A stretch of DNA of 64,000 nucleotides from Owenia fusiformis (GCA_903813345.2 CAIIXF020000001.1:28892001-28956000), one strand, 5' to 3'; numbered from the stretch's first letter, positions 5,584 through 46,800 are shown. The notes: generated by a model not told the origin, from the sequence alone. Numbers and translations: made by a program.

Positions 5584-8500
5584 TCAAAACACAATTTGCT
5601 CTTCATCCTGAACTCCTGATATATCATCCTGATATTCATCTGTCAGTTTACGCCACCAAGGCTGGTTCAATAGTTTTATTTCATTGATATGATTCTGTCT
5701 CGCTTTAGCAGCCACAGGAGCTGACCTACTGGTATACAGTTCAATGTCTTTATCACTTGCATCCACTAGGCTGGGGGCATCTGGAAGATATAATATGTAA
5801 ATACATGTGTACATGTACATATGTTAACATCCATATTCATTTGTATTGGGTCATTTTTCACAAACAAAAACTTATTTGATCATATTCACTTGGAATCATT
5901 TATTTACGAAATAAACATGTTCTCGGTTGATTTACATGATTCTGCTGAACTGTCCATAGTTGTATATATAGTTAATTTGATATACATGCGATGTATAATA
6001 ATCCAATGGCCCACGGAAATTATGACAACAGATTTCAGACAGATTTTTGCACGGACTTTCTGACCACAAAAACAAATGCATATTTAACAGTTTAAAGGAC
6101 AACTGAAATAGCTTTTCTCAGCTTGCAGCTACAAAAATGTGGTTTTCTCCATTGTAAGCCCAACGCAGAGTTCTTGCGATAGCCATTATAAAATAAATGT
6201 TAGATAACTGCTAACGCTCATAGATAACGAAATAAAAGTAACTGATCAATCAAATTGGCCCCCACGTGATTAGTAACGTCATATACAAAATATAGCTTTG
6301 GTTTATTGGTTCCTTAGTAATCACAATGTCACGGCAACCATAGGATTGTTGTGTAAACAAATAACAAAACATTTTGGCATTATGACGTCATGATCTAATG
6401 GACCAAAATGGGCCGCTGAGGGGCCAGTGAGAGATCACGTGGGGGCCAATAACGTCACAACCAATTCGAATATTGCTTATTAAGCAACTATAACGATCGT
6501 TAGAGTGAAATTATTTTCACACTACTGATGAGAAAACATGTCCAAATACATTTATCAAAAAGTTTATTGATTCCTTTAGGTTTTAAAATACCATTTCATA
6601 TCTGCTTTAATGTCAACTTTGATTACTACTCACAAAAAGCTAAAACTGTCTGAAATCTATTGCCTGATAACTTCCATGGCTTTTTCCCTGGATCCTCAGA
6701 AATTGAGCATTTTTGTGTTGCACAAATATGTACAGTATATAAGTATATGTTTTATGTATCGTATAACAAATAAATGTTCACTTACTCAGTAAAAGATCAG
6801 CATCTGTTTCAAGCCTTGCCAGCAAAGCTTCTCTCCGTTGTTCAAGTTTACGTATGGTCTTACACTGACTGATATGGCTCCGAATGGCATCCTGCACCTT
6901 GTTATGGAGTTCTTCCTGTTGGGGACGAGTCTTGGAGGGAAACTGAAAATATTTTAAATTACGGGGTACTTGCAACTTAATATTAATTTTAAAATTGTAT
7001 TTCTACTGTGTATCTGAAGATCACCTTGAGACTGTTATGTGTATTTAGCATAAACTTGAAGAAATGTTTTTTGGTAAAAAGTTATTTTTATCAAGAATCT
7101 CCACAGTCCACACCTGTATTTTTTTACATTTGTACCCTCTACATCTATTCATTTGACCTGATGTTGTCAAAAAGTGAAATACTCAATATTATGTAATTTG
7201 ATCAAGTATATAAAAGTGCTAAACATAATTTTATTTTTATTTATTTATTTGCCAACACTTTTATAACAGTGGCACATGGATTATTATCCAGTGCGGCTAC
7301 ATACAACCATACAGTATGAATAAAAATATACAGTCAATCAGTCATGTATAATTTCTTTAAAACAATGTTGCATATACTAAAAAAATAATCAAAGACATAA
7401 ATCTCTGGGCTTGTACAATTGGATTAAAAAGCGTTTTACAATGCTATCAAATGCGGCAAGACTCTTGCCCCCATTTTGAAAAAGTCTCATCAGCAAGCAT
7501 AAAGGTCAATTTCTCAGCCAGATTCCCCTAAATGAAATCAGAAAATAAATCGGAGGGACATTGCTTACAAACAGTGTGGAAAAAGGATTCACGTTCTTCT
7601 TTAAAATGTTCACACAGCAGCAACCTATGCTGTAAGTCTTCATGTACATTCAAACTACAAAGTTTACCTTTGCCATCACTTTTGCCCCATGCAGAGTAAT
7701 TGGATTGAAGGCAAAAATTGTTGGTTCTTGCAAGAAATTTGAGTCTAGAACCATAAAAATCAAAGTCTTGTTTTAGATAAAATTTCTTGGTATGGATGGT
7801 ATGGATATCTGAGAGTAATTCACAGTGAAATTACCATGGGCATTCATTAGATTGAAAGCCCATGGAAATTACCAAAGAAAAGAAGTCTATTGAGTATACT
7901 AGTGACTTGGTGAAGTACTAGCCATTTACAAATTGTCCATGATACATGTTCAAATACAATACCTTTCATATATTTAATTGATTTAATAATAGAGATCATT
8001 ACATAAATGTTACATCAATATCCCTTGAGGCAGTTGAAAAGATATTTAGCACTGAAATTTCACTAATGAATTCAAGTTGGCCTGTTAGCCAAGCCGTGAT
8101 CGTCTAGTGGTTAGGACCCCACGTTGTGGCCGTGGTAACCCAGGTTCGAATCCTGGTCACGGCATGGCCAACATTTTTTTATATTCAAATCCTGGAGGCT
8201 ATTTCATAAAAATTTAAAACTTTGAAATTGCGTTTATGATTTCAAGTTGGCCTGCTAGCCTAGCCGTGATCGTCTAGTGGTTAGGACCCCACGTTGTGGC
8301 CGTGGTAACCCAGGTTCGAATCCTGGTCACGGCATGGCCAACATTTTTTTATATTCAAATCCTGGAGGCTATTTCATAAAATTTAAAACTCTGATATTGC
8401 ATTTATGATTTCAAGTTGGCCTGCTAGCCTAGCCGTGATCGTCTAGTGGTTAGGACCCCACGTTGTGGCCGTGGTAACCCAGGTTCGAATCCTGGTCACG

Positions 8501-11500
8501 GCATGGCCAACATTTTTTTATATTCAAATCCTGGAGGCTATTTCATAAAAATTTAAAACTCTGATATTGCATTTATGATTTCAAGTTGGCCTGATAGCTT
8601 AGCCGTGATCGTCTAGTGGTTAAGACGCCACATTGTGGCTGTGGAAATCCAGGTTTGAATCCTGGTCACGGCATTTCCAATATATTTTTTTCTTTTGTAA
8701 TCCTCAAGGCTATTTCATAAGATTTAAAACACTGATATTGCATTTATGATTTCAAGTTGGCCTGATAGCTTAGCCATGATCGTCTAGTGGTTGAGACCCC
8801 ACATTGTGGCCGTGGTATCCAGGTTCGAATTCCTGTCATGGCATGGCCAACATTTTGATTTCGTTTTTCTGTATTTGAATCACTGAGCCTATTTCATGAC
8901 ATTTTTTACACATATTATTTCTGAAAAATCCATTCCAAAGTTAACAATTTATTTCGGAAATATCCTAGATTTTAATGTTCTTTGTGGAATAATGTTCCAG
9001 ATTTTGTAACAATTTTTTTGCTTGTTATTTAATGTCTCAATCTAATTTGGTCTCATAATTCCTTTTCATGCTTTTTAATACAAGAAGTTCATTTCTATCC
9101 CTGAATTAGTCTTAATAGGGAATTCATAGATTTTAAACTTTATTTTTTCATTTTTCAAATGTTCATATCCACATTCATTATCATGAAATATCTTAAAGTC
9201 AGGGTGCACTTTGATGAAATTACATGACCATGTGCTATTTTCAGATAAACATAACTCATTCCACACATCATCTACATCTTTCATTCTTGCACAAAAGATG
9301 CATTAGTGTACCTAGACTATTAATTAAGGGGTGGATAATTCTTCAGAATTTTTAAAATAATAGAATATTCAGTGGTTTACTTTTCAAGATTGCAAAAAAA
9401 ATTCAAAAGTGCACTCTGGCCTTAATCTAAGCTTGATATATTATACGAAATTATATTTGGAATGGTAAAGAATAAAATCAGATATATTTGGGAAATAATG
9501 CTCTAGCCTAGCCAAATGCATAGGGAGTAAGTCACCCCCTCCCTCTTATAGTCTATATATATATATAATATAAGTGATATTCGATGGTTTCAAAAGTGAT
9601 ATTCAATGGTTTCAACTTTAACTTTATTAATTCTGCTTGAGTCTCAGATTCCTCAAAATGATTTTTTCAAAATTTTCATTTTTTCTGATTGTTTAATGTT
9701 CGCTGGGATATAATTTCCCATGGGATAAACCTATGGTTTTGAAGATAATATCAATTAAATCCACTCATATCATACATCAATATCCACATATGGACATAAA
9801 TTATATTTTTTCAAAACCATAGGATAAAATTCAGAGTCCCTGGAATCAGACCTGGACCGTTCAATGGTAAAGTCAATTTTACCCCCAATATTATTCAATA
9901 GATTTCAATAGGAAGTAAGAGCCAGGAAACATTTAATTCATAAAATGGACATCCATGTTAATACTGACATCATGCTGAGGATGCAATTAACCAATTTGTT
10001 ACATCTACAAATAATAATTAATAATTTTGAATGTTTGGACATAATACCTGGGCTAATTGAAGAGTCAGAGATAGAGAAGAGGTGTCAAAAATAAAGCCAA
10101 AATGATAATTAACCAAATAACATGTTCTAAAACATCTAAAAAATATAATGTCTCCTAATAAGTTCCACATTTTATCAAATGGTGCAGTAATTAAAGAATT
10201 CATATGGAGATATGTGTCTACAATTCTATTTGTGTACATGGACCTCTGATGTGTACTTGCTTTGTCTTAATGTAAACCCACATTTAAAAACAACTTAAAA
10301 TAAATATTTTGAAGGGAGATGGGAGGGGGCTTCAAAAACCCAGATCATGTTAATTTCTATCAATAAAAATATGAAATATCCCTAGTTCTTGAGAATATAA
10401 ACCATTGAATATTAGGAAAGTAAAACTGAAAAGGAAATAAGATGAAAAGATTATGAAATAAGAATCTCTTATTTTACCTTTAATTTTCAAAGACAATATT
10501 ATCATTAGAGTTTGGTGTCAGGATGCCACAATGTTGAAGTATAAAAACATCTAAGATGTAAAAAGGAAATAACTTTTCTTGAATCTGGTTACTTCCTTTT
10601 GTTTCTTTTATTAACTGACAGAACTATCTAAGGTTCAATCAATGATAACAATCATAATCTAAGCTAATAACCCCAGATTGAACCTTAATTTATGACACTT
10701 TGTTTATCAGGTTAATTAGAAACAATAAAGGAAATATTGGCTAAATATCCCAATAGGAAGCTATTGTTTCAAACAAGAAACAATATTTAGTAATCAAAGA
10801 AATTAACCATATAAACACCAAAACAATCAAACACACAATACATCTTGATGCTAATTTTAATTACATGCGTTGGTAATTAAGGGGTTAATCTAGGTAATAA
10901 AAGCCCAAGAGTTGTTAAGTTGGTGACATTTTGAGAAGGTGTTTGGAGTGGAACAAAGGGTGTGGGTAATCCTGACTATAAACCCTGACCCTAACTCAGG
11001 GCCAACACTCTCAAATTTAGATGAAACATGGAACTCACAAACATGCGGATTAGGAGTATGGCATCCCCAGTTGGTAAGTTTTTGTTTTCATCATCTCCAT
11101 TGTTTGTGACATCTTCCTAATTATTATTTGTTTGTCATCAAACTGCTAATTAATGACATTATTGTTTGCAATGTAATGTGAATATAAAGATAGTCTCAGA
11201 AAGGGTACTGCATTCATTCAACAATGTATGGGACATTAACAAAGTGATTCTTTCAAGAATTTGATTTCGCATCTTTAAAAAGTTAAAACACAGTGGGACA
11301 GGATATTTTGTTCTATGTAGGACATAAGCAAAGATGCCATGGGTTCACATACAAGACTTTTTTTCAGGTAAATTAAATTGCCACAAAACTTGATGCAAAG
11401 ATTGACTGTGGTAGCTCAACTTAGATGGATAAAGACTCAACATATTTAAATCAATTAATTAATAAACTCTCACAGACTTCATTGACATGGAATTTAGATA

Positions 11501-14500
11501 CGAATCTTTAACTTCAATTGTAACTATACAAATCATATGCCAATGCTCTAATTGCACAAAGGAAGCCATTTTGAAAATTTGATGTCATACAAAAGGAAGT
11601 CATGAAGTGAGATGATTAATTAGAAGCCACTTATGTCTTCATGTATCTTACACATATAGGTATATAACATCAACACTTGGTACAATGCAATCATTGCACA
11701 ATGGTTCCAAACACAGAACATCTTTAATTTACAAGAGAACACTCAGGAAAGTTTTATGAATTTTTCTCAATTAGCTGGCTATTAAGGTACAGTAGTTATA
11801 GGACATCAGTCTTAGCCTAGGTAATCGATCATCTGCAAACTCAACACTATCATTTATGATAAGAATTGGTATTAGAGAAACAAGTATTTTGCTACAAGGC
11901 AACTATTGGCAAGTTGTTGGAAGGTTCTAATTTGCGAACATTTCAACAACGAGCCAAACTTTGAATTGTGACATGACAACACAGAACAATGAACATACCT
12001 GGATATGGTGAAGGATCTGGTGAAGGTTTTACCAAATCTTTACATTTTTCAACTATTGGCAAGTTATAGGAGACACTTTACTATAGAACAGTGGATCCTG
12101 AACTTGTCAAATGTCGAATATGGTTTATCAACAAGTATTAAAAGTAGGTCGTTAAATTATTGAGCGTTGTGTGTAACCAGTATCTTCAAACTTTGTAATG
12201 GGATCCGGAATGGAATAAGAGAATACATAATTTGGCAAGTTTCAGGAGACGCTTAAAAATTGAATAGCGGATTCTGAAGTTGTCAAATTTTGTGCTTTCT
12301 TAAATTAAACTAACAATACAAGAAAAAGATGGTACAATTAATCCATGGATTGGGTCTGTTTTTAATCAAGGATAAAAAAGAAGGGAAATATATTTGTCCA
12401 TCATAACCTTGCCATAACTGGGACTTCTCACTGGAGTTTCACAAGTATTGGCAAGTGAAGGAGGCACTGTTTTAATACCAGTGTCCTATCTTTTGTCAAA
12501 TTCTGTGAACTCAATATAATCAACTTAACTCTTACATGGCTAGGGGTGTCAAATTGTGAATTACAACTATTGGCAAGTAAAGAAGGCACTGTTTAATGTC
12601 AGTGTCCTTTCTTTTGTCAAATTCTGTGAACTCAATATAATCAACTTAACAATTACATGACGAGAAGCTTCAAATGGAGTATTACAAGTATTGGCAAGTG
12701 AAGGAGGCACTGTTTCAATTTCAGTGTCCTTTCTTTTGTCAAATTCTGTGAACTCAATATAATCAACTTAACTCTTTCATGGCTAGGTGTTTCAAATGGA
12801 GTATTACAAGTATTGGCAAGTGAAGGAGGCACTGTTTCAATTTCAGTGTCCTTTCTTTTGTCAAATTCTGTGAACTCAATATAATCAACTTAACTCTTAC
12901 ATGGCTAAGAGCTTCAAATGGAGTATTACAAGTATTGGCAAGTGAAGGAGGCACTGTTTCAATTTCAGTGTCCTTTCTTTTGTCAAATTCTGTGAACTCA
13001 ATATAATCAACTTAACTCTTACATGGCTAAGAGCTTCAAATGGAGTATTACAAGTATTGGCAAGTGAAGGAGGCACTGTTTCAATATCAGTGTCCTTTCT
13101 TTTGTCAAATTCTGTGAACTCAATATAATCAACTTAACTCTTACATGGCTAGGAGCTTCAAATGGAGTATTACAAGTATTGGCAAGTGAAGGAGGCACTA
13201 TTTCAATTTCAGTGTCCTTTCTTTTGTCAAATTTTGTGAACTCAATATAATCAACTTAACTCTTACATGGCTAGGAGCTTCAAATGGACTATTACAAGTA
13301 TTGGCAAGTGAAGGAGGCACTGTTTCGATTTCAGTGTCCTTTCTTTTGTCAAATTTTGTGAACTCAATATAATCAACTTAACTCTTACATGGCTAGGAGC
13401 TTCAAATGGAGTATTACAAGTATTGGCAAGTGAAGGAGGCACTGTTTCAATTTCAGTGTTCTTTCTTTTGTCAAATTCTGTGAACTCAATATAATCAACT
13501 TAAATCTTACATGGCTAGGAGCTTCAAATGGAGTATTACAAGTATTGGCAAGTGAAGGAGGCACTGTTTCAATTTCAGTGTTCTTTCTTTTGTCAAATTC
13601 TGTGAACTCAATATAATCAACTTAAATCTTACATGGCTAGGAGCTTCAAATGGAGTATTACAAGTATTGGCAAGTGAAGGAGGCACTGTTTCAATTTCAG
13701 TGTCCTTTCTTTTGTCAAATTTTGTGAACTCAATATAACTAACTTATTTCTTACATGGCTAGGAGTTTCAAATGGAGTTTCACAAGTATTGGCAAGTGAA
13801 GGAGGCACTGTTTCAATTTCAGTGTCCTTTCTTTTGTCAAATTTTGTGAACTTGACAACATCAACCTAACTCTTACATGGCTAGGAGTTTCAAATGGAGT
13901 ATTACAAGTATTGGCAAGTGAAGGAGGCACTGTTTCAATTTCAGTGTCCTTTCTTTTGTCAAATTCTGTGAACTCAGTATAATCAACTTAACTCTTACAT
14001 GGCTAGGAGCTTCAAATGGAGTATTACAAGTATTGGTCCTTTCTTTTGTCAAATTCTGTGAACTCAATATAATCAACTTAACTCTTACATGGCTAAGAAG
14101 TTTCTAATGGAGTTTTACAAGTATTGGCAAGTGAAGGAGGCACTGTTTCAATTTCAGTGTCCTTTCTTTTGTCAAATTCTGTGAACTCAATGCAATCAAC
14201 TTAACTCTTACATAGCAAGGTATTTCAAATGTAGTGTTACAAGTATTGGCAAGTGAAGGAGGCACTGTTTCGATTTCAGTGTCCTTTCTTTTGTCAAATT
14301 CTGTGAACTAAATATAATCAACTTAACTCTTACATGGCTAGGGGTGTCAAATTGAGTATTACAAGATTTGGCAAGTGAAGGAGGCACTGTTTTTATAACA
14401 GTATCCTTTCTTTTGTCAAATTCTGTGAACTCAATATAATCAACTTAACTCTTACATGGCTAGGGGTGTCAAATTGAGAATTACAAGTATTGGCAAGTGA

Positions 14501-17500
14501 AGGAGGCACTGTTTTAATATCAGTGTCCTTTCTTTTGTCAAATTCTGTGAACTTGACAACATCAACCTAACTCTTACATGGCTAGGAGTTTCAAATGGAG
14601 TATTACAAGTATTGGCAAGTGAAGGAGGCACTGTTTCAAATTCAGTGTTCTTTCTTTTGTCAAATTCTGTGAAATCAACATAATCAACTTAATTGTTACA
14701 TGGCTAGGAGTTTCAAATTGAGGATTACAAGTATTGGCAAGTGAAGGAGGCACTGTTTTAATATCAGTGTTCTTTCTTTTGTCAAATTCTGTGAACTCAA
14801 CATAATCAACTTAATTGTTACATGGCTAGGAGTTTCAAATTGAGGATTACAAGTATTGGCAAGTGAAGGAGGCACTGTTTTAATATCAGTGTCCTTTCTT
14901 TTGTCAAATTCTGTGAACTCAACATAATCAACTTAATTGTTACATGGCTAGGAGTTTCAAATTGAGGATTACAAGTATTGGCAAGTGATGGAGGCACTGT
15001 TTTAATATCAGTGTCCTTTCTTTTGTCAAATTCTGTGAACTCAATATAATCAACTTAATTCTTACATGGCAAGGTGTTTCAAATGGAGTATTACAAGTAT
15101 TGGCAAGTGAAGGAGGCACTGTTTTTATATCAGTGTCCTTTCTTTTGTCAAATTCTGTGAACTCAACATAATCAACTTAATTCTTACATGACAAAGAGCT
15201 TCAAATGGAGTATTACAAGTATTGGCAAGTGAAGGAGGCACTGTTTTAATATCAGTGTCCTTTCTTTTGTCAAATTCTGTGAACTCAACATAATCAACTT
15301 AACTCTTACATGGCTAGGAGTTTCAAATGGAGTATTACAAGTATTGGCAAGTGAAGGAGGCACTGTTTCAATTTCAGTGTTCTTTCTTTTGTCAAATTCT
15401 GTGAACTCAACATAATCAACTTAATTGTTACATGGCTAGGGGTGTCAAATTGAGGATTACAAGTATTGGCAAGTGAAGGAGGCACTGTTTTAATATCACC
15501 GTCCTTTCTTTTGTCAAATTCTGTGAACTTGACAACATCAACTTAACTCTTACATGGCTAGGAGTTTCAAATGGAGAATTACAAGTATTGGCAAGTGAAG
15601 GAGGCACTGTTTTAATATCAGTGTCCTTTCTTTTGTCAAATTCTGTGAACTCAATATAATCAACTTAACTCTTTCATGGCTAGGAGCTTCGAATGGAGTA
15701 TTACAAGTATTGGCAAGTGAAGGAGGCACTGTTTCAATATCAGTGTCCTTTCTTTTGTCAAATTCTGTGAACTTGACAACATCAACCTAACTCTTACATG
15801 GCTAGGAGTTTCAAATGGAGTATTACAAGTATTGGCAAGTGAAGGAGGCACTGTTTCAATTTCAGTGTTCTTTCTTTTGTCAAATTCTGTGAACTCAATA
15901 TAATCAACTTAACTCTTACATGGCTAGGCGCTTCAAATGGAGTATTACAAGTATTTGCAAGTGAAGGAGGCACTGTTTCAATTTCAGTGTTCTTTCTTTT
16001 GTCAAATTCTGTGAACTCAACATAATCAACTTAATTGTTACATGGCTAGGGGTGTCAAATGGAGTATTTCAAGTATTGGCAAGTGAAGGAGGCACTGTTT
16101 CAATTTCAGTGTCTTTTCTTTTGTTAAATTATGTGAACTCAATATATCAACTGAACTCTTACATGGCTAGGAGTTTCAAATGGAGTATAAAAAGTATTGG
16201 TGAAGGCACTATGTGTGAGTACTTATCAGCATAGGACACAATATACCACAAGTGTTTTAATTTTTTATGCTTACGATAATGCTCTTTTTGACAAAGGTGT
16301 CACTGAATCAACTTTCTATGATCCGTCTTTTTGAAATTCAATCTCAATATTTCTCCAACTGATATCATTTAGGGGCTTCAGTTTTTTCATTAAGATGCTG
16401 AACACAGCAGTTCAAGTTAAAGTGTATTCCTCCAACCTGTAAGAGAATTGGGATGAAGTTGATGAAAGACAAACATTGAAACAGCTGGACTTACTGGGTG
16501 ATTTTCTCTCCAATCTAAGATTTTTGCCTGTAACTCTACCCTCCTGTCATCAGTCAGACCTGGTGGTCTCTGCCATGGGGGAGGCTCACGTCTCTTCACT
16601 CTTAATCTCTCTAACCATTTACGAACCTTTAGTAAACCAGAATTAAAGTTATCATTGCATATAAACATTCAAATTGCATGATATGTGATGTACATATATA
16701 TTAGTATTGAAATAGTTTGGCATTTTTTCCAGCAGACTCTTGTGGTACATGCATATTATATGACTGTTTTTATTTCCTGAATTTTAACATTAATTTCTAA
16801 AGATATGCTGTTGAGAATAAATAAAATCTAAATATATATTGGTTCTGAGAAGGAGATGAATGAAAGTGAATGGTTTCAAGTACTATACTAATAATAATTA
16901 AATCTCAAAGTTTATTTATAGACATTGAACCTGGGAAGGAGCAAGGTGTCAGAACAAACATTTCAATATTTACATGAAATATTGAGTTTCTAAAAACATC
17001 ACACAAAACTTGCAAGTTCAAAACCCAAGATTTTCCCAAGAAGTTTTCAAATGGACCAATTCTATTATGCATAAAGACAAAACACCTATAGAAAGAATAT
17101 ATTGAGTATCAATACAGACATGTATGGTGTCCTTTAATATATAACTGTATCCATAGAACCTCGCGTAATACTCATATAGGCAAACATTATGTCCCAATAT
17201 TTGGCCTATGTCTATAGACACTCAAATTGATGACTCCTTGAAATTCTGCTCTCATACAGTCTTAATGTCACAACATACATATGGAATACCTACCGCCCTT
17301 TGTATAATTATCACAGATCTTAATCTCTTTGTGGCCCGTTTCCTGGCATTTGGACTACCTATGGACTTTCTTTGTCTGTACCCCCGGAATTGTGCCTGTA
17401 TTTTTATTGCAGCTCTCTGTTGTTCTTTTTCAAGGTATTGGTCCATCTGACCTATACATACCACATGTGAATAATTCAACGCAAAGGTTCATGTTAAAAA

Positions 17501-24240: not shown

Positions 24241-27200
24241 ATGGCAGAATCAACATGTGAATGTAAGATTGGTCCTTCTATTTTGAACTCGGATTTGTCA
24301 ATGTTGGCATCCGAGTGTCAGAGAATGATGGATTGCGGGGCTGACTACATTCACCTTGATGTAATGGATGGTGCTTTTGTGCCAAACATCACCTTCGGTC
24401 ATCCTATCGTCAAATGTCTTCGACCAAAATTGCCATCTGCATTCTTTGATATGCACATGATGGTTGCCAAACCAGAACAGGTAAATTGGCACGTCTTTCT
24501 ATTTTTAATCGATGAATACATGCTGGAATATCTACTGATTGAGAGTGTATGCTCTAATGGGGCTCTGTCTGAGTGGGGCAGCCCTGTCAACCCTCACGCA
24601 AATCACGCATTTTGTTGATAGTTTTAAAAGGGGTCAACCCAGTTGTCCGAAACCCAGTTCTCCAAAACCCAGTTTTCCGAAACCCAGTTGTCCGAAACCC
24701 AGTTCTCCGAAACCCAGTTTTCCGAAACCCAGTTGTCCGAAACCCAGTACTCCGAGAATTAGGGGATCTTATTTGAAAAATACAATTTTTTTAAACGAAT
24801 CTCGTTGTCGCAACCTCTGCGAATCACAACATAACATTGGAATAACGTTGACACCATTGCAAAATTAGGCTAAATATGCTAAGTCAAGACGTTAATTGTT
24901 TAATGTTTAGCCTACGAAAGTTCATATACAGGTGATATAGATGTTCAAACAAACAAAGTTAAATTATGTTATTCTCATTGTAAAATGACGTTCACACAAC
25001 ATACATAGATAGGGGTCTACAATTTTTAAACCAATTTTCTTTATGGCCCATGGGCCTTTTTTGAGAGGGAACAACATTTTTCCAATGGGTGATGAGCGTT
25101 CATAAAAGGAAAAATAGCTTTCCCAAGCCAATGGGCATTTATTTAGTAAAGTTGACATGTACATCTTTTGAAACCAAAACATATTCTTCATTTACGTACT
25201 CTGTTCGAGAAATAGAGATTAAATTAAAAGGATGAAGTGAGTACATGGCGAAAATGAAACTTCTTGCGAATGGGAGAACATCCATTTTGATACGAGGACA
25301 GCGTTTCCAGTTGATCCCAAGTGATTAAGTTAAGAATGTTTTGTTCTTTTACGATTTGATAAAATACAGAGACTAAGAAATTAAATGCGACGAAATATTT
25401 TGACAACGTAATATGTATACTGTTTTATTCTTAAAGTACTATATGCGTAAACTTATTTTATCTGTTTCAAAATGATTCATTTTATTTTGCCTATATAAAA
25501 GAGATTGAAGAAGATAAGATAAACTGTTCCGTAATATATTTTTTGTGTTTTGATAACCTTTTTTTAGAATCACAATTTAAAATAAATCCCCCGTTCCTGC
25601 CATTCTGGTAACGTGTGCAATGGATGCAATTCAAAGTGAGAGAGAGAGAGAGAGAGATCTATGAACATCAGAATGCGTCCATGCCATTAATTTGGCCAAA
25701 TACATGGCATGAAACTGGCCTAAGCTTAGTACGTCTCCCCTTTCTCTGGTAAATTATGACTATATTTTTCGGAGTAATGGGTTTCGGACAACTGGGTTTC
25801 GGACAACTGGGTTTCGGACAACTGGGTTTCGGACAACTGGGGTGCACCCGTTTTAATAAGCGTTTTTCATAAAATGCAGATTCGGTAAAATACCGAACAG
25901 CGAAAAAAAGCGAACGCATTTTGTTCGGGTTTTGCACACGATTGCTGTATGCATTTGGTTCAAAATATGTGTATATATCACGCATTTGTTTCGAAAATAT
26001 TTGCACCTACTCCTACCACTTTTCAAGATGTCAGAAGGCAATAGGCAAGATGGAGGAATTTTCTCAATTTGCCAATTTACTTATAATGAATTGGAGATTC
26101 AATTGCATGCCTACCATAAAGATGCTCTTTTTCTGTTTTAGTGGGTTGAGAACATGGCTGATGCAGGTGCAAATCAATATACATTCCATATTGAAGCTAC
26201 AGATGAACCTGAAGCTTGCATCAGGAAAGTGCGTGAAGCAGGAATGAAGGTAAATGCTCCATAAAATACAAATACTCAGATCTATGTACTTGATTCATTT
26301 AAAGGTATATGCAATATGAATGCATGTGTCATTTTGATCCATTCACTCTCTTGGGAACAAAATGGTCTTATTCTATTCTGAATTTAATGTAAAGTAAAGT
26401 ATCAGTACAAAATAGTATAGTGTAGTGTAGTGTAGTGTAGTGCAGTGTAGTATAATGTAGTGTAGTATAGTATAATGTAGTGTTATGTAGTGCAGTGTAG
26501 AAAAGGTACAGTATGGTACAGTTGGTACAGCACAATAGTTACAGTTTCATTTGACTGGTGTGGTTTACACTTGAATGAAAATGACTGTTTTCAGTTTTTC
26601 AATCCAAAGCCAGTAAATGACATTATTATTCTCAATTTGAAACTAAAGAGATCAGACCAAAGATGTACATGTACAAGGAATAAATAAATTGAATGTTTTT
26701 TTCTTACACTACAGGTTGGTCTAGGTATAAAGCCTGGTACTCCAGTAGATGTACTACTCCCCTATGTTAACCATGTAGATATGGTTCTTGTCATGACAGT
26801 TGAACCAGGATTTGGTGGACAGAAATTTATGGCTGATATGATGCCAAAGGTAAGCAAATCCAACTTATTTCATATATAACTACTGTATAACTATTTATTT
26901 TATAGTCTCCAACTTTTTTGTGGATGGTGTTTGGCAGTTGGTGTTCAGTGGTTGGTGTTTGATGGTCAGCATTTAACAATTGGCAGGTGGTGACATTTTG
27001 CATGGCAACACATTGTTTGCGATGTCACAAGTTCAATAACATCCTTCTTTTTATAGAAACTTGTATTCAGTTTTGGGAATTTTGGTATTTTAAAATAATT
27101 TAGTAAATAAAAAATGTGGACTAAATTTTGGAGTAAGTTCTATTCCATAAAGGTTTACCAATATCACCCTGAGACTTCTCGTCAGAGATAAGTCATATTG

Positions 27201-29613: not shown

Positions 29614-32600
29614 TTATTTTTTGTTCTTGACTCCTCGTTCAAGATCTGCCATCAATCTGAGGCAGCGTTCATCTTGCCAAGGCAGTGTAATACATTGTAC
29701 TGCCACTGGGAGTCCTTCACTACCCTCCATATGCTGAAATTATACACGTGCCTTCCTTAGTCAGTTGTTTTATAAAACCCCAAAATTTGACTTAGATGTA
29801 GAGAAGTTCATAACAAAATATAGTAATAATAAAAGTGATATTTTTTATCAAGTTCTCAATTTTAGCAACTTATCAGCAGGAGTACAGTACCAGATGAGAA
29901 TTTAAAACTTCCTTCTTAATTTTATCTATCCAGATTAAAATCTAGTTGCGCCAAGTTTGGAAATGTAGATCAGAATAAAGAAGAATTTTGTACCCAGTCT
30001 AGAACTAACTACAGAGAAGCTTTAAAGGGAATTTCTTTGTCTCATTAGTGACCTTTGATCACTGGACCAAAACCAGAATTCTCACCTTTTTTATACGTCT
30101 ACTAGCAAACGTTGAAGCCTTCCAATGCTTTAGATTTTCCTGGTCAGATTTTGTTACCTTGGTTACGGGAAGAACACCAGCTGGGAAATTCAAGACATTC
30201 CACAAGGCAAAGTATGCCAGAATTTGACCTGGATCAAAACAGAATTTTATCAATTGAAGTATTATCAATTCTTAGATTTAATATCTGATTATTATGCATT
30301 GTCTCCTTAGTGATGTCCCATAATAACTGCTAATATATTACATACTGTAAATATATCTTGAGACCAACTTATGGGCACAGTATTGCTGATATATTGAGAA
30401 AATCAACGAAACAACCAACTGTTAGATTTTAACACAATTTCGCTAGTTTGAACTATTTGCTATGGAAGGGAATTCCTGTTGCATGGCATGAGCATCATCA
30501 CATGACTTTAACCCAGGCAGCCAATCAGATTCAGAGCTGTTTTTTGTGTTTTTTTGGAATTTCTGACCATCCAGTAAATAATTCAAAATTATCAAGGCCA
30601 GGGGTACTCTAATTGTGCTCCAATTAGACAGTGCCTGTGACAGGAAATTGTCTCAGATATCAATGCATCAGTCAGACATTCCTAAATCTTATTTGGATTA
30701 ATTTCTGGGTTTTTCAGTTTAACATCATTAGACTAATTTCAGACATTGTCATTTTTCACTCAATGACTCATTTAATTGTGTTGTTTACCAACATAATCTT
30801 CTGGGTTTCCAGTAGGCATAGCAACTGATCCATAAGCCGGAGCAATCACTGCATCGAGGCCAGCTCTCTTCCAGTGGTCAATGAAGCGACCTGTCAGTTT
30901 CTGGAATCAGTTATATAAAGTGCATTCAATATTTAGAATCATTGGTGTTATTGAAATTTTCTTGAAGTTGGCCTACGCTTGCCAAAAAGGAAATTAAATA
31001 TCATATTGAGACATAATTCTCTCTTACCTCGCACAGTGCTGTAACATCCCACCAATCTTGACACCTCCTGCAAATAAACACATAAGAATTGCAACTTGTA
31101 CATTTTCCATGCAAAACTCGTATGTACCTATATTTATCCAATACTTACTAGTGTTATAGGTAAATAACATGTGGGAATATAATTAATATCTGAGGTAAGC
31201 GGGTGATATATGTATCTCCCACTGAGGTGAGCAGGAGATATACTGTACATTACTGGCTCATCACGAATTACATTCTGTGTTTTTTGTGCACTGAACAATA
31301 TAAACGCCAAAGCTTTAAAAAACTACAAATGTTAAGAACTTTAAATTGAGATTAAATATTCATGTTTTGATTGTATAATTATCACAATTGTAATTATTTC
31401 ATGAAGGTTCCATAACATTCAATGTACATGTATACTTGATCATAATCATATCTCTCGCTAGATTCAATATATCAACCTTTGGTCTCGGTGATCATTCCTC
31501 CGGTGGATATATTGTATTTCCCTCAGATTATACCCTGTATCAAAAACCTCCCATTAGATAACCTCAATATGTTGAGTTTATGTAGTAACAATTGTTGGAT
31601 TGAATTGAATCTACTGATATTCACTTACTTCATTTTTGAAGATGATTCAATAGTTGCCGCCTCATCCTTCATCTGCAAAAGAATCACAACCAGAGTATCA
31701 TTCAAAGTTTCCTTGTTTTATTTTTTCATTTAGATTTCCAATTCTAAACTAGATTCCATCGATATTACCTGAGTTAATGCTCGTCATAACTGGCAGAATG
31801 ATAGTAAACAAACTTATTCTTTCTGTAATTGAATAATACTTGGCAAAAAGGGTGTTAATGAATGAAGGAGAATGCAAATAATATGTAGGATAGTGTTAAT
31901 GAATGGAGGAGAATGCCAAATATATAGGATAGTGTTAATGAATGAAGGAGAATGCAAATAATATGTAGGATAGTGTTAATCAATGAAGGAGAATGACAAT
32001 AATATGTAGAATAGTGTTAATGAATGAAGGGGAATGCCAATAATATGTAGGATAGTGTTAATGAATGAAGGAGAATGCCAATAATATGTAGGATATTGTT
32101 AATGAATGAAGGAGAATGCCAACAATATGTAGGATAGTGTTAATGAATGAAGGAGAATGCCAATACATGTAATATGTAGGATAGTGTTAATGAATGAAGG
32201 AGAATGCCAATAATATGTAGGATAGTGTTAATGAATGGAGGAGAATGCCAAATATATAGGATAGTGTTAATGAATGAAGGAGAATGCGAATAATATGTAG
32301 GATAGTGTTAATGAATGAAGAAGAATGCCAAATATATAGGATAGTGTTAATGAATGAAGGAGAATGCAAATAATATGTAGGATAGTGTTAATGAATGGAG
32401 GAGAATGCCAAATATATAGGATAGTGTTAATGAATGGAGGAGAATGCAAATAATATTTAGGATAGTGTTAATGAATGGAGGAGAATGCCAAATATATAGG
32501 ATAGTGTTAATGAATGTAGGGTGGGGTATATCACAAAGAAAAATAGGCTGTAGATACCATATGATATGTACATGTATGTGCACATGTCTTGTATAGACTA

Positions 32601-38685: not shown

Positions 38686-40464
38686 CTATTTGCTATATGC
38701 TTGATTAGATTGACCAGGGTATTGTGTTACTGGTACAGAGTATGCTGTTGGTTGTCCGGGATGCCCTGTTGTTTGTGTAGGGTATGTCATCGATTGTGTA
38801 GAGTACCCTGTTACTGGTGGCGCTCCAAATGTGGTCATAGCTTGTGGGGGGTTGGCATAATTTGCAGGTGTGGCTGTAATTGGACATGTGTTTTCCCCCT
38901 CCAGACTTTGTGCAGATATTCGCATGCATAGAGCACCAATAAAGCCTATCAAGGCTGCCACTGTCATCAGGTAGAAACTTTCATCAAGGAATGTAGCATC
39001 AGTTACATGTATTTGGTTGGTGTAAATCCAGGTTTCAAAGAAGGCTCCGAAGAGGCTGAATCCAAGCATCATAAACACACCTGAAAATTCAACAAATATA
39101 GTGATTCAGGGTGGTGTTTTATATACAGGCAACTTTGCTGATTGGTGAAATGACAGTGACATCTTTTCATTCTGAGTGGTTACATCAAAGAAATGCACAA
39201 AGGGCAATATTAAATTGGATAGTAAAAAAAGGATGTCAACCACAATTGATTTTAGAAAATAGAAGTATTACATATAAAGGCTTCATGTATTTGAGTAAAT
39301 TATAGAAATCCTTAAATATTCAGTAGTGAATAATGGCAATTCACCTGCTAACAGAGCCATCGCTGCCAAAGCAAATGTAGTGTATCGAGCAACTCTGGGG
39401 TTCTTAGTCCCATAAACGCAACAGAAAATTGGACCGTTCAAGATTAGTGTAAGGGCCATAAGGATTGTTCCACACATGTTCATAGCCATGGCAGCCGTAT
39501 GTGCGTGAGCTGAAATATATAATGTCAGTGTTACATTTTTTACAGCATTTCCAATAACTTATTTTTTAGTTTATATGAATCTATGAAGAACATATATACA
39601 GGGTGAGCCAAAAAAACAATACCGTTTAAAGATGAATAATTCATATGATATATGATAAACCATGCCATTTGTTAAATATCATTTTAAAGATAAATCATTT
39701 CCTAAAAATACGACACCATCCAATTGGAAAACCTTTGTTTACTTGTGGAGTTAGAGGCTAAAATTGACAGCTAGCCGCACTCAATATGTTTGACTGAATC
39801 ATCATACATTTATTTAACAATTGATAATTAATTAAAAAGATATAAGTATTATTGGTGAATTTTGCACTAGACATGTCCCTCCATTTTCCACTATTCCAAG
39901 TTTTTTGTTGCTCATGACAACCCTGGTTTTAATCCCCATGAAAACAACAGTTTTTCAATCAGATGGTGTCATATTGTTATAAAATGATTTATCTTTAAAA
40001 TGATATACAATACATGGCATGATTTAACGTTATATCATATGATATTCATCCTTAAATTTGGGTATTGTTTTTTTGGCCCACTCTGTACATATAGACAGGT
40101 TATAAGTTTCAACCTATATCTGGCAATATATTTAGGATATTTTTGTAATGTAGCATTAATTGAAAAGCTAATGAGCTGTAAATGAAGAAGTGAAATGGTT
40201 GATTTAAATGATTTATCTGGACTTACGTAAATTCATGTCAAGTGTACTTTTACATTCTCTGTCCGTTTCATTCACTGTGTTGCACATTTGAAATAATCCT
40301 ATTCTCGTGTCCAATTGGTGGGTTGAGTTGGATGAAGAAATTCTGGCCCAGCTTTGTTGTGAAACACTTCTTATTGCCATTCCCATGGATACACCAACCA
40401 TGACAACACCTGCGATACGGCATCCATGCCCATAACTGTAGGCCCTTTTGCTTTCATGTATCAT
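38686..40464 (-). CDS. Claudin/PMP22/EMP-like four-transmembrane protein, about 265 aa
   Basis: Exons 40464-40227, 39509-39345, 39080-38686 (798 nt, in frame). First loop has W...IGLFQMC...C (claudin-superfamily W-GLW-C-C pattern); four hydrophobic segments; P/Q/T/Y-rich tail. Confidence 0.8.
39599..40085. mobile_element. Tc1/mariner MITE
   Basis: TA-CAGGGTGAGCCAAAAAAACAATACC ... GGTATTGTTTTTTTGGCCCACTCTG-TA; the inverted similarity extends about 140 bp. Confidence 0.8.
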
Positions 40465-40912
40465 AATTTTCTTTTAGATATTATATTCAATTATAAACAG
40501 TTCAGTATTTAATTGGCAAGGTGTGTTATTCAAATGAATGTGTTATTCATTGCGGTTGTTGTGTGAATGTTTCTTATCATAATCATAGCAACGTTATCTT
40601 AATCCTTTCTATCAGCTGGCTCAAAGATAATATGTATACAAGTGGAGTTTACTTAGTCTACCTTTTACAGCTTTTATTGTATTGTTTTGTAAATGTACAT
40701 TTTAAATAAAAGCATTTCCTTGAACATCTGTGGCTTGCTCTATCAACAAATGTGTGAATGCATGACATTTCTAAAGTCCATTTCAATATTAAAATGTTTG
40801 AAAGATCTGTTGATGTTATGTTTTATTATGACTGTATCATTGAATTTTGCTTGATTGTTTTTTTAGCTCTCATGGTATTAGTTATATAATCAGCCACTTT
40901 TCTGTCCACCTC

Positions 40913-42721
40913 TCCATCTGCCTGCCTACCCATCCATCCATCCACCCATTCATCCATTCACCCATCCATCCACCCATCCATCCATCAATTCATCCATCCA
41001 TCCACCCATTCACCCATCCATCCATCCACCTATTCACCCATCCATCCACCTATCCACCCATTCAACCATCCATCCATTCACCCATCCATCCACCTTTCTA
41101 CCCATTCACCCATCCATCAATCCATCCACCAATTAACCCATCTATCCACCCATTCACCCATCCATCCATCCACCTATCCACCCATCCATCCATCCATCCA
41201 TTCACCCATCCATCCATCCATCCATCCACCCATTCACCCATCCATCCATCCATCTACCCATTCACCCATCCATCCATCCACCTATCCACCCATTCAACCA
41301 TCCATCCATTCACCCATCCATCCATCCATTCACCCATCCATCCATCCATCCACCCATTCACCCATCCATCCATCCATCCATCCATCCATCCATCTACCCA
41401 TTTAACCATCAATCCACCCGTTCACCCATCCATCCATCCATTCACCCATCCATCCATCCACCCATCCATCCATTCACCCATCCATCCATCCACCCATTCA
41501 CCCATCCATCCACCCCTCCATCCATCCATCCATCAATCTATCTATCCATCCATCTATCCACCCTTCACCCATCCATCCACCCATCCATCCATCCACCCAT
41601 TCAACCATCTATCCTTCCACCCGTTCACCCATCCATCCATCCATCCATCCATCCACCCCTCCATCCATCCATCCATCAATCCATCCACCCATTCACCCAT
41701 CCATCCATCCATCCATCTACCCATTTTACCATCAATCCACCCGTTCACCCATCCATCCATCCATTCACCCATCCATCCATCCACCCATTCACCCATCCAT
41801 CCACCCCTCCATCCATCCATCCATCCATCCACCCATTCACCCATCCATCCATCCATCCATCTACCCATTTAACCATCAATCCACCCGTTCACCCATCCAT
41901 CCACCCACCAATCCATCCATTCACCCATCCATCCATCCATTCACCCATCCATCCAGCCATTCATCCACCCATTCACCCATCCATCCAACTACCCATTCAC
42001 CCATCCAGCCATCCACCCATCCATCCATCCATCCACCAATTCACCCATCCATCCACCAATTCACCCATCCATCCATCTACCCATCTACCTATTCACCCAT
42101 CCATCCACCTATCCACCCGTTCAACCATCCATCCATTCACCCATCCACCCACCCATCCATCCATCCATTTACCCATTCAACCATCCATCCATCCACCTGT
42201 ACACCCATCCATCCATCCACCCACATACCCATCCATCCATCCACCAATTCACCCATCCATCCATCCATCTACCCATCTACCTATTCACCCATCCATCCAC
42301 CTATCCACCCGTTCAACCATCCATCCATTCACCCATCCACCCACCCATCCATCCATCCATTTACCCATTCAACCATCCATCCATCCAGCCATCCAACCAT
42401 CCATCCACCCATTTACTCATTCATCCATCCACCCATCCACCCATCTGTCCAGCCATCCATCCACCCATCCATCCATCCATCCATCCACCTGTCCACCCAT
42501 TCACCCATTCAACCATCCATTTACCCATTCGCCCATCCATCCTATCATCCACCCATCCATCCATCGATCCATCCACCCATCCATCCATCCATGCATCCAT
42601 CCATCCATGCATCCATCCATCCATCCTATCATCCACCTATCCATCCACCCATTCATCCACCCATCCATGCATCCATCCATCCATGCATCCATCCTTCCTA
42701 TCATCCATCCTATCATCCATC
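40913..42721. repeat. 1.8-kb degenerate (CCAT)n microsatellite array
   Basis: Direct inspection; contains higher-order repeated blocks. Confidence 0.97.
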
Positions 42722-43860
42722 AGGTTTCCAGCACTTTTACAATGTTAGCCTACATATCCATGGTGCTTATTTACTATTGTATATTTAGAGTATGGAGTGA
42801 GCTATTGTAATGGCCCGTCTGTTCTTCTGTCCGTCTGTCTGTCTATCCTTCTGTCATCACATTGATAGTTACTCGTAATTTGAAATCCATGACAATTGAA
42901 ATGGTTTCCTTTTTAAGACATGTCTATCTAAAACGTTCAATTATCCCATAAGTTGCGTCTCAAAAGCTTGCCTTGATTTGTTTCAAAATGGCAGCCATTT
43001 TTATTGTGGAAAAATCAGGTTTTCAACACCTTTTTGGTCAGAACTCAACAGGTATTCCATCAATTTGCATGAAATTGTACAGGTACCTTAATTTTTCATG
43101 TTATCAATAATATATACAATTACAGCAAAATATGTTGGAAAGATTTAAAATGGCTACCATTTTTATTGCGGAGAATACCTAAATGTATAAGTTATCAATA
43201 ATGTCTAGAAGTTTCTGCAAAATATGAAGCAGCTAAGTATATGGGAGGGGGCAGGCACCTGAGCCCTCCCAATGTCCACCACTACAATTTGTAGCCCAAC
43301 ACTTCAAAATAAATGGGTAACTGCCTTGCTAAGTTATGTCATTACAAACTAACCTTTTTTAAAACCACTATAGATAGACTAAGAAGCTTAGAAGCCTCTT
43401 TTGCCATCTAATATGCTATGGAAATGTGGTTATTGCAAATGTTACCTCATATTTGAACATAAAGGGCTAATAAAAGTCTCGATCATTTAGTATATTTTAT
43501 TTCAATGCTAATATTTATTATCATATGCTCTGCAATGTTTTCTGTACAACTACATTAAAATATATAGGGTGGGCCAAAAATTGTATTTTTTTTATTTTGT
43601 TCACCCGGTCTGTACATGTTCTTTCTGATAAAAAAATAATATACATGTATAATAAACCATTTGGAAAATATATATGAATATACCAACGAAATGTGTCTCC
43701 TTCAATTAAATCATTTCATATCATTTTACGGTTTAAGCCTGAAATGATATCATTATAAGATATCATTCTTAGAGTGTTCATTTTGATTATGATGCGTTTT
43801 GTCTCTGATTTAGTTTCTTGTATCTTGAAGCCCTTTAGAAGTCACTCAATGGAATCCTTG

Positions 43861-46800
43861 CTAGCTGTCAAATAACATTCCTGCAATTTGATTAGTATAT
43901 ATATAGTATATATATTAATTTGCATTTATTCAAATTTTTCTATACAGTGATGTATGCCAATGGGAAAACACCATAAATGGTTACAAAATACAACAAGAAA
44001 AAGAACACCAGTACACCAGTCATAATAGTAAAAAAACATGTATGCCAATATTCAACTGAATTATGTGTAAATTATTCACCTGCAATGCAAGCTGTTGTAA
44101 AGCAAGCAAGATTCCCTGCAACCATGGCCCGTATAGCAACAGATGCTAAATCTCCTGTAAAGAGAAATCATAAATCAGCATTCAACACAGGTTAAAAGTT
44201 TCATTTTGTCCATTTTGTAAACAATACTATTGTATCTCTTAGGCTACGTTCACACCAATGGCGCTTTGATGGCGCTTTAAAGCGGCTTGTAAAGCGGCAC
44301 CAAAGAGTAACAAAGCTTGATTAAAGCGTCGGGGTCGTAATAGGTAGTAGAAAAGCTCGGAGTAAAGCGGGATATTCGGCAAGAGCGCAAAAATAAAAAC
44401 TGTTCAAGCTACGTTCGCACCAACGGCGCTTTGATGGCGCTTTAAAGCGGCTTGTAAAGCGGCACCAAAGCGTAACAAAGCTTGATTAAAGCGTCTGGGT
44501 CGTAAAGGGTCGTAGAAAGGCTCGGAGTAAAGCGGGATAATCGGCAAGAGCGCCAAAAAATTTTAAACAGTTTAAAAATTTTGGGCGCTCAGTTACGAAT
44601 TGATAGAAGCGCCGAGAGCGTATCAAAGCTTAACAAACCGTAACAAAGCTCAGCAAAACCTTGACCCAAAGCGTATGAAAGCTTTACAGAGCTTGGTTCA
44701 AAGCAGGGACCCCAGTCTCTTCACTGTCTGTTACCACTTGACACGCTTCGTTAAGATGTCTCAAGATTTGCTACGATCTGGCATGAAGATCTGACACGAG
44801 GTCAGACGCTTTAATCAATATCTGACACTCTTTGTTACACTTTCATGAAGGACTCTCAAGCTTTCCAACAAATTGAGACGCTTTAATCAAGGATTGAAAC
44901 GCTTTGCTAGGCTTTGTTACGCTTGACAAGTTTCCACACGCTATATCACGCCGTGCGACAAACATCATGTCCATCTGCAATTTCTGGATCTTGTTGTTCT
45001 GCCATCGTGTTCTCAAGTCAAAGATGCAATGGTTTTATGGATCTACTGCATCTTTATATAGTCATTGGATCAAAAGCGGCATGAAATCGGCGATCTCGAC
45101 ATTTTCCAATGCGTGACAGAGCTTAACAGAACGTAACAATGCACAACAGAGCTTGGCAATCGTATCAGAGCCTGATTTAAAGCGTCATTGTCGCATCAAA
45201 GCGTAATAATGCTTATCAAAGCTTATCAAAGCGTAAAAAAAGCCTGAGGAACCTATCAAAGCTATGTTAAGCTTTCCTACGCTTTGGATCAAGCTTTTCT
45301 GAGCTTTGTTACGGTTTGTTAAGCTTTGATACGCTCTCGGCGCTTTAGTCAATTCGTAACAGAGCACCCAAAATTTTTAAACAGTTTAAATTTTTTTGGC
45401 GCTCTTGCCGAATATCCCGCTTTACTTCGAGCTTTTCTACGACCTATTACGACCCCGACGCTTTAATCAAGCTTTGTTATGCATTGGTGTCGCTTTACAA
45501 GCCGCTTTAAAGCGCCATCAAAGCGCCGTTGGTATGAACAAAAATAACAAAAATGACGGCGCTTTGCTCGCCGATTTAAAGCGTGGCATTCGCCGTTGGT
45601 GTGAACATAGCTTTAGAGAAACCTCTACACCCCCAATCTGCACTCTGAAATCATGTTACTGTATAGTGCATTAAGAGTATGGTACCATATGGTACTATTA
45701 GAGTATGGTGCAGTATAGTGTACATGGAATACCATACAGTACTGTTGGATATTGGCTGTGTATTTTTCTATAAATTCAACCAATTTAAGTGAATTCAATA
45801 TTGATTTCACTTACGTTTCCTAGATGGCGCTAGTGCAGTTACACTCCCTAGAACAATACCAACATCACTGAAATTTGCAAATCCGCAACAAGCATAAGTT
45901 GCTATCACCTCTGATCGAATCTACAATAAATATTACTTTACTAATTAGGCATAATAATGACACATTATGGCTAAAATGAATAAATTTTAAGTGAACTGGT
46001 ACACTTTTAAGGAATTCAGATTGAAAATATTTTAATAAATAACTACAATCCCAGTGTAAGACCATTATTATCAAAATATGCATGTTTTATATACAGTGAA
46101 ACCTATAAAGTGGAACACCTCTAGAGGTAGAACACCTCTGTAATTAGTGTAACGCTTTCCAGAGTCTCAAGACCTCCTGGCTATATGTTAAATGAACCTC
46201 CTTCAGTGCAACAGCTCTCAAGTGGAACACATTTTAGAAGTACCAAAGGTGTTCCTCTTTGACAGGTTTTACTGTAATTTGTTCGTCTATACTCACAGAC
46301 ATTGCAGGAAGGATTCCAGCTTTCCTGTTGTTAATGAGCTCTCCAAGCTTTTCATAAGCTACAATATCACTTAGAAATATTTTTGAACCAATCAGTTCTC
46401 CAACTTTCAAGCAGTCTTTGAGGTCCACACCCATCAAAAGTGCTAAGGGCCAGAATAAGTAAGAACAGATCAGCTGGAGAATAGAATATACTAGTGTGAA
46501 CATATTTAGAAATGCCTATAAAATTTTGTCTATTACTTTTGAATCGCCCCTCGTATATCAGAGGACGGGTATATAAATTTATTTAAAGGGTCTTGTATTG
46601 GATACATATGGGTCATGATTAATGAAATGATGGTATGACTTTTTATAAAAGATAAAATCAGCTTATTCAGGGCATAGAGGAAAATACTATCCCAAGACAT
46701 TCATTTAATAAGTATGTTCTTTTGTTGAAATTAATTTTTCCGAAAGAATTGATATTTCTTAAGAGAAATCTGGATTCTCCGAATGTTCACATTTTCTCAT

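Follow-up and report, generated by a model that had tools for sequence, protein, structure and literature searches.

What is a 122-bp tandem repeat, each full-length unit of which is predicted to fold into a hairpin shaped like a microRNA (miRNA) precursor, doing on a chromosome of the annelid Owenia fusiformis? The repeat lies in a 64,000-nucleotide (nt) stretch of this chromosome (GCA_903813345.2, CAIIXF020000001.1:28892001-28956000; hereafter the window, with positions counted from its first letter). With three older, strongly diverged paralogues that adjoin it upstream, it makes up 33 hairpins in 4.3 kb (30 array units and the three paralogues P1, P2 and P3). We consider it somewhat better than an even chance that these are 33 paralogous miRNA-type hairpin genes, processed as a tandem miRNA cluster from the + strand.

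The 122-bp period extends over 12432-16200 in two rows of 13.2 and 17.7 copies, with 94% and 91% matches, respectively (Tandem Repeats Finder). A fuzzy search retrieved 30 + strand copies of the 22-nt 5' arm of the hairpin, 26 of them exact and four with one or two substitutions (12570, 13179, 14978 and 15954). These copies are spaced by 122 nt, with the exception of one interval of 121 nt and one of 213 nt, the latter because a 91-bp unit (14016-14106) carries a 31-bp deletion of the hairpin top. The motif TTGGCAAGT occurs 32 times against 0.75 occurrences expected from 100 shuffles, which excludes chance. The elements of the array, which spans 3.8 kb, are given below, scored where indicated with R1, a covariance model built from the four hairpin types (the array unit and the three paralogues).

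12431-16180, + strand: array of 30 head-to-tail hairpin units of 122 bp (two are 121 bp) plus one deleted unit; R1 scores of 85-109 bits for all 30
12796-12917, + strand: exemplar unit, used for the fold and the pair counts
12799-12808 paired with 12869-12877, + strand: basal stem of the exemplar (predicted fold)
12813-12834, 12835-12843 and 12844-12864, + strand: 5' arm, loop and 3' arm of the exemplar (predicted fold)
12878-12917, + strand: linker of the exemplar, with a weak 6-bp hairpin (predicted fold)
14016-14106, + strand: dead unit of 91 bp, in which a 31-bp deletion takes out the loop together with most of the 5' arm and the beginning of the 3' arm, as read from the sequence; partial R1 match at 14016-14073 (47.7 bits)
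16181-16212, + strand: truncated, degenerate unit start that closes the array, as read from the sequence; no stable fold (z score -0.43)

In the predicted + strand fold of the exemplar, the upper stem consists of 20 pairs, including four G-U pairs, with one U-U mismatch and one bulged A. It is capped by a 9-nt loop and followed by a 4x4 internal loop and nine basal pairs, i.e., a 22-nt 5' arm and a 21-nt 3' arm stand above a 9-bp basal stem. All 20 upper-stem pairs are kept in 23 of the 30 units, and a CAAC is found at columns 91-94 of the unit, about 20 nt past the presumed end of the 3' arm product. The two strands are not equivalent. The folding energy of the exemplar is -35.5 kcal/mol (z -3.93) on the + strand versus -25.4 kcal/mol (z -2.05) on the - strand, and over the first 90 nt of the unit the + strand is the more stable one in 30 of 30 units (means of -29.0 and -17.1 kcal/mol, respectively), or in 33 of 33 hairpins when the paralogues are included. 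The four hairpin types together contain 10 G-U wobbles and not a single A-C mismatch. Since the new single-unit mutations include four G>A columns as well as three C>T columns, mutation bias alone does not explain this wobble asymmetry. Judged by MirGeneDB-type criteria for miRNA genes, all four types present an imperfect hairpin with less-paired flanks, in which a duplex of about 22 nt stands above a lower stem of roughly one helical turn.

The distribution of variants along the unit follows the same structure. Nucleotide diversity is low in the 5' arm (0.015) and the 3' arm (0.037) compared with the loop (0.165) and the linker (0.127), while the basal stem (0.074) and the internal loop (0.062) are intermediate. 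Shared-variant columns, i.e., those with a variant in two or more units, amount to 1 of 43 in the upper stem versus 23 of 79 elsewhere (Fisher p = 0.0002), and the upper stem has the second lowest value among 122 circular shifts. Of the 12 stem columns that vary at all, three keep the + strand pair and nine break it, each of the pair-breaking variants being confined to a single unit. The only stem variant that has spread is the C>T change at column 55, present in seven units, which converts a G-C pair to G-U. The upper stem is therefore under constraint within the array. By the same MirGeneDB-type criteria, the arms are more conserved than the loop and the flanks, and the seed is kept among the paralogues.

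Much of this had been anticipated by the original prediction, a satellite of about 30 hairpin copies with changes in the 5' arm of four named units only. Both statements were borne out, the former as 30 units of intact length, a deleted unit and a truncated end, and the latter by recovery of the same four copies. The geometry that it described (22-nt arm, 9-nt loop, 3' arm, basal stem and four G-U pairs) was reproduced by the predicted fold, its + strand-specific folding held when both strands were folded, and the loop variants and the G-C to G-U change in the 3' arm are as it had described them. Its expectation that substitutions would fall unevenly agrees with the sparing of the stem. Two of its terms need qualification: "intact" applies to the 23 units with all upper-stem pairs and not to the other seven, and the CNNC motif placed shortly downstream is present as CAAC, slightly beyond the usual distance.

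Three further features of the unit were considered and discarded. The - strand open reading frames (ORFs) of 76-82 amino acids in the array are by-products of the repeat, 122 not being a multiple of 3 and the frames being limited by stops. A promoter in each unit was rejected, as the TATA-like AATATAA falls in the most variable columns (82-88) and shows no constraint. Likewise, the linker contains another, weaker hairpin (columns 99-116) that is not a constrained element, with 88.7% of its positions paired and two of its six pairs departing only by unpaired cells.

The paralogues that adjoin the array upstream, at 11906, 12056 and 12232, each start with TTGGCAAGT:

11889-11978, + strand: P1; 5' arm 11906-11927 (22 nt), loop of 8 nt, 3' arm ending at about 11957, imperfect lower stem; R1 62.6 bits
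12039-12128, + strand: P2; 5' arm 12056-12077 (22 nt), loop of 12 nt, 3' arm ending at about 12110; R1 61.9 bits
12215-12304, + strand: P3; 5' arm 12232-12253 (22 nt), loop of 12 nt, 3' arm ending at about 12286, long lower stem; R1 58.6 bits

Their identity to the array hairpin is 34 of 62, 42 of 59 and 37 of 58 alignment columns for P1, P2 and P3, respectively (about 55-70%). The remainder of the 5' arm and the loops differ between paralogues, whereas the seed region (the first 9 nt of that arm) is the same in 32 of the 33 hairpins, the exception being the 15954 unit with TTTG. In all four types the apical loop follows exactly 22 nt after the start of the conserved UUGG; the loops measure 8-12 nt, there are 8-14 further imperfect basal pairs, and the stem mismatches are U-U, G-A or bulges. 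The + strand is again favoured in P1 (-31.3 kcal/mol, z -4.79, versus -27.9 on the - strand), P2 (-26.7 kcal/mol, z -4.79, versus -21.5) and P3 (-35.4 kcal/mol, z -7.20, versus -17.8). The aligned hairpins reach -24.1, -22.7 and -22.0 kcal/mol, respectively, a stability that simulated neutral divergence from the array hairpin attains in only 0, 3 and 2 of 1000 runs, and permutation of their own changed bases in 3, 41 and 4 of 1000. R1 recovers all 33 hairpins and the deleted unit; over the 64-kb window (E values up to 10), it returned no further paralogue outside 11889-16180, only weak - strand echoes and three matches with E > 0.5. Another hairpin at 10926-11015 was rejected as a relative, as it has no sequence relation to the cluster. 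From their sequences, P1-P3 are probably old copies, and the array units recently amplified, near-identical ones.

Does the hairpin persist in other individuals? Positions 11300-12920 were compared with three RNA sequencing (RNA-seq) runs and one DNA run (X14), all deposited under the O. fusiformis label. The DNA run gave 49 reads, none of them 99% alike and 40 at 90-95%. Of these reads, 43 lie only partly on the stretch, and 88% of the aligned reads continue into unlike sequence; the loose ends resemble diverged linker, which suggests that the copies are in tandem there too. Depth is greatest, at about 25, where the fourth unit has its hairpin, and the reads in the flank are restricted to 11850-12014, over P1. 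Of the differences listed (at least 10% of reads), the 5' arm has none and the 3' arm has two minor ones (3 of 23 reads each), while the near-fixed ones affect columns 43 and 47 of the loop, column 15 of the internal loop and the linker. The G>C change at column 15, carried by 26 of 28 reads, is the state of the older paralogues. This comparison, which is biased toward alignable sequence and is supporting rather than decisive, suggests that a second individual or lineage keeps the hairpin while the loop and the linker differ. The non-hairpin flank received no reads at a nominal depth of about 3x and no read is 99% alike, despite the same species label; the individual sequenced is therefore strongly diverged or structurally different here.

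The same run allows an estimate of copy number. With 1661 M letters and a 519-Mb genome (PMC12257675, Table 1), the nominal depth of 3.2x gives about 10 copies, and scaling by the sparse depth of the flank gives about 120. A classical satellite has a high copy number and large arrays at many loci; here there are about 10-120 copies in this run and one array in the 64-kb window, i.e., tens of copies and no major satellite.

The relationship of these hairpins to known families must be interpreted cautiously. No Rfam family matched the cluster at its gathering score, the only matches at that level in the window being four transfer RNAs (tRNAs), all of them in a tRNA-His array. Below the thresholds (gathering scores of 51-97 bits), in searches run on short inputs with relaxed filters, the array unit matched mir-263 (RF00706; mir-96/182/183 clan) at 23.6 bits (E 0.00035 in a 90-nt search; gathering score 51.3), with 15 of 23 positions of the array 5' arm equal to the model consensus, a match that is absent in the older paralogues. 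It also matched mir-31_2 at 16.2 bits. P1 matched mir-31 (RF00661) on the + strand at 25.0 bits (E 0.00058 in a 101-nt search; gathering score 51), and 15 of the first 17 positions of its 5' arm equal the consensus, including the block common to the whole cluster, position 9 of which differs. P3 matched mir-676 at 25.2 bits. An H/ACA small nucleolar RNA (snoRNA) was discarded, the match to a Tetrahymena snoRNA having an E value of 3.3 and the internal loop measuring only 4x4 nt. The arm sequences retrieved nothing relevant from the full texts of papers, a search outside which supplements lie (only the 9-mer was found, in unrelated topics), and the exact 22-mer gave 0 matches in metagenome contigs. 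Among the sequencing runs listed as sharing words with the sequence, none was an RNA run; ten Logan-contig rows, with 5-22% of the words, were left out of the analysis. MirGeneDB 3.0 includes O. fusiformis with its own small-RNA data (PMC11701709), and the hairpin may already be listed there.

The closest likeness in organization is to fish miR-430 and frog miR-427, in which many head-to-tail copies of one hairpin family occupy one locus, as do the 33 hairpins in 4.3 kb described here. Clusters of the miR-430 type can be classed as satellites by repeat finders, their variants share the seed, and the many copies are believed to permit a burst of expression when the zygotic genome is activated (PMC10417697). 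By this analogy, the Owenia cluster is probably a further example of a multi-copy tandem miRNA cluster. There are also differences: the cluster has no sequence relation to mir-430, which is absent from the Rfam matches listed, its unit of only 122 bp contains one hairpin, a conserved internal promoter is not apparent (the TATA-like stretch occupies the columns that vary most), and the host is an annelid.

How would such a cluster work? RNA polymerase (Pol) II would transcribe it as one or a few long + strand primary transcripts, in which each unit would present to Microprocessor a lower stem of about 9-14 bp topped by some 22 bp of upper stem, from which Drosha and Dicer would then release a duplex of about 22 nt. 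The guide would be the 5' arm, starting at or one base inside UUGGCAAGU, which has a 5' U and A-U pairs at that end, against the G-C pairs at the other end of the duplex. The high copy number could serve dosage, as in the zebrafish miR-430 cluster. Read-through by Pol III from the tRNA-His array 3.6 kb upstream is unlikely as a source of the transcript, as a TTTT, the Pol III terminator, is present in each 3' arm.

Several points weigh against a miRNA cluster. The reading rests here on DNA sequence and predicted fold rather than on small-RNA reads, and the three RNA-seq runs returned 4, 6 and 1 reads among 12.7, 11.5 and 11.0 million records (11 in about 35.2 million), none of them 99% alike or better and with both mate orientations represented. 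These 11 reads indicate that those samples contain no abundant long transcript; the primary transcripts of miRNAs are short-lived, and long-RNA libraries cannot show 22-nt products. One or two upper-stem pairs are broken in seven of the 30 units, the CNNC motif lies about 2 nt further downstream than the usual rule (near that distance, not at it), and both the 9-nt loop and the precursor (about 54 nt) are on the short side for animal miRNAs. No covariation is seen among the array units: one pair is altered on both sides, which 274 of 500 shuffles match, and whole-structure measures of covariation in the array alignment do not exceed shuffles. The copies are too alike for it, and the signal is one of conservation only. 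The best Rfam matches (23.6-25.2 bits) stand close to the 18.6 and 22.1 bits of two unrelated control hairpins (same window, unrelated miRNA families), and descent from mir-31 or from mir-96/263 is therefore a lead, not a result. Finally, dyad symmetries are common in satellites, and template switching during replication can make and keep hairpins without selection on an RNA. The original prediction of a recently amplified miRNA or hairpin-RNA array under selection is partly supported: the geometry, strand specificity and stem constraint agree with it, as do the paralogues and the second genome, which it had not considered, whereas the 11 reads from three long-RNA runs hardly amount to transcription.

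The likeliest alternative is a plain tandem repeat of the euchromatin, perhaps of transposon origin, whose dyad would be a feature of the DNA, such as a cruciform or a protein-binding box, or a by-product left by slippage or template switching, and which would give rise to no functional small RNA. The satellite-like build of the locus, with its 122-bp period, dead unit and degenerate edges, suits this explanation, as do the near absence of long RNA, of a known RNA family and of covariation within the array, and conserved boxes and dyad symmetries are described as frequent in satellites in the accessible parts of the literature. Euchromatic satellites likewise have tandem monomers of about 100-200 bp with uneven variation, as in the oyster satellitome, where the accessible part of the paper notes no 122-bp monomer (PMC8268682). 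Nevertheless, a DNA palindrome should fold alike on both strands, whereas here the + strand wins in all 33 hairpins through a wobble-dependent fold with G-U pairs and no A-C. Moreover, edge copies at only about 55-70% identity keep the 22-nt arms and stems more stable than the neutral simulation, and the copies number tens, not thousands. We therefore regard this explanation as unlikely, though worth serious consideration.

The remaining alternatives accept a function at the RNA level. A satellite-derived locus of PIWI-interacting RNAs (piRNAs), or of other non-miRNA small RNAs, would make the 22-nt block part of a longer PIWI-bound RNA, the hairpin being incidental or serving another RNA-binding protein. 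Its model is the tapiR1/2 locus of Aedes aegypti, which has an embryonic role, measures about 3.5 kb and comprises 20 full units and a disrupted one, and in which the part of the monomer that yields the small RNAs is better conserved than the remainder (bioRxiv 10.1101/2020.01.15.907428). The layout of the Owenia array (3.8 kb, 30 units and one disrupted, a conserved block) is near to it. In contrast, the mosquito products are 29-30-nt piRNAs, whose biogenesis needs no hairpin, while in Owenia both arms of the 22-nt stem are constrained, the change that has spread keeps its pair and the 22-nt stem length is kept across diverged paralogues. This constraint on the hairpin favours the miRNA type over the piRNA type, and leaves the latter quite improbable. 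A structured repeat carried by a long non-coding RNA or by an intron, with undiced hairpins acting as protein-binding or localisation elements, would agree with the constraint on a + strand RNA structure and with the few + strand-compatible reads in the flank; the exact 22-nt arm, the lower stem of about 11 bp and the seed-like 5' block fit substrates of Microprocessor and Dicer better, and the long-RNA depth is negligible, so that we give it very little credence.

The cluster sits between the tRNA-His array and an epimerase-like exon. In the upstream flank, a splice-donor-like GGTAAGT is found at 11060-11080 and an acceptor-plus-donor-like stretch at 11360-11372, and these splice-like sites could, from their sequence, belong to a non-coding host transcript. 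Two RNA read pairs map to 11300-11794 in the same flank. Further upstream are five tRNA-His (GTG) genes at 8093-8843 (+ strand), within a 170-bp tandem array (8052-8856), four of the five passing the Rfam tRNA gathering score. The other neighbours, named by eye, are a ribulose-phosphate epimerase-like exon at about 24202 and amidase-signature exons at 33.7-36 kb (- strand); a nucleoside transporter at 46-53 kb (- strand) was recognized by its Pfam domains. The exon ORF at 52847-53344 (- strand) is 100% identical to an O. fusiformis protein, and the guanine plus cytosine (GC) content of the window (0.31-0.41) is near the 35% published for this genome (PMC12257675).

Other repeats in the window are distinct from the cluster. 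Downstream of the epimerase-like exon, a 15-bp repeat is present in eight copies at 24636-24755 (+ strand) and in five inverted copies at 25767-25841, about 1 kb apart; from their sequence they look like the subterminal repeats of a transposon or of a miniature inverted-repeat transposable element. A 1.8-kb CCAT-rich microsatellite at 40930-42721 (GC skew of -0.55 over 40001-44000) is a source of long spurious ORFs. Two minisatellites were found, one at 31852-32520 with 16 copies of a 41/80-bp unit and one at 47909-48984 with 38 copies of a 28-bp unit, the latter within the stretch covered by the exon ORFs of the nucleoside transporter. An ORF fragment at 57658-57912 (- strand) resembles, by eye, the C-terminal part of a mariner/Tc1-type transposase.

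To our knowledge, large tandem miRNA arrays are known mainly from vertebrates, where they are tied to the maternal-to-zygotic transition. Whether small RNAs play that role in annelids and other spiralians appears as an open question in the accessible parts of the literature found. The present locus offers a specific candidate in a model annelid that evolves slowly and for which embryology, a chromosome assembly and small-RNA data are available. It also illustrates a general risk, namely that repeat masking could conceal functional hairpin arrays, and the old diverged paralogues beside a young amplified block make it a clean case for studying how such arrays grow. A bolder idea, which by analogy we hold to be a long shot, is that the array is the spiralian counterpart of miR-430/miR-427, possibly derived from the ancient mir-31 gene via the three upstream intermediates, and that it fires at zygotic genome activation in Owenia embryos to clear maternal messenger RNAs. 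If this were true, early embryos would have arrived convergently at burst miRNA dosage through array amplification.

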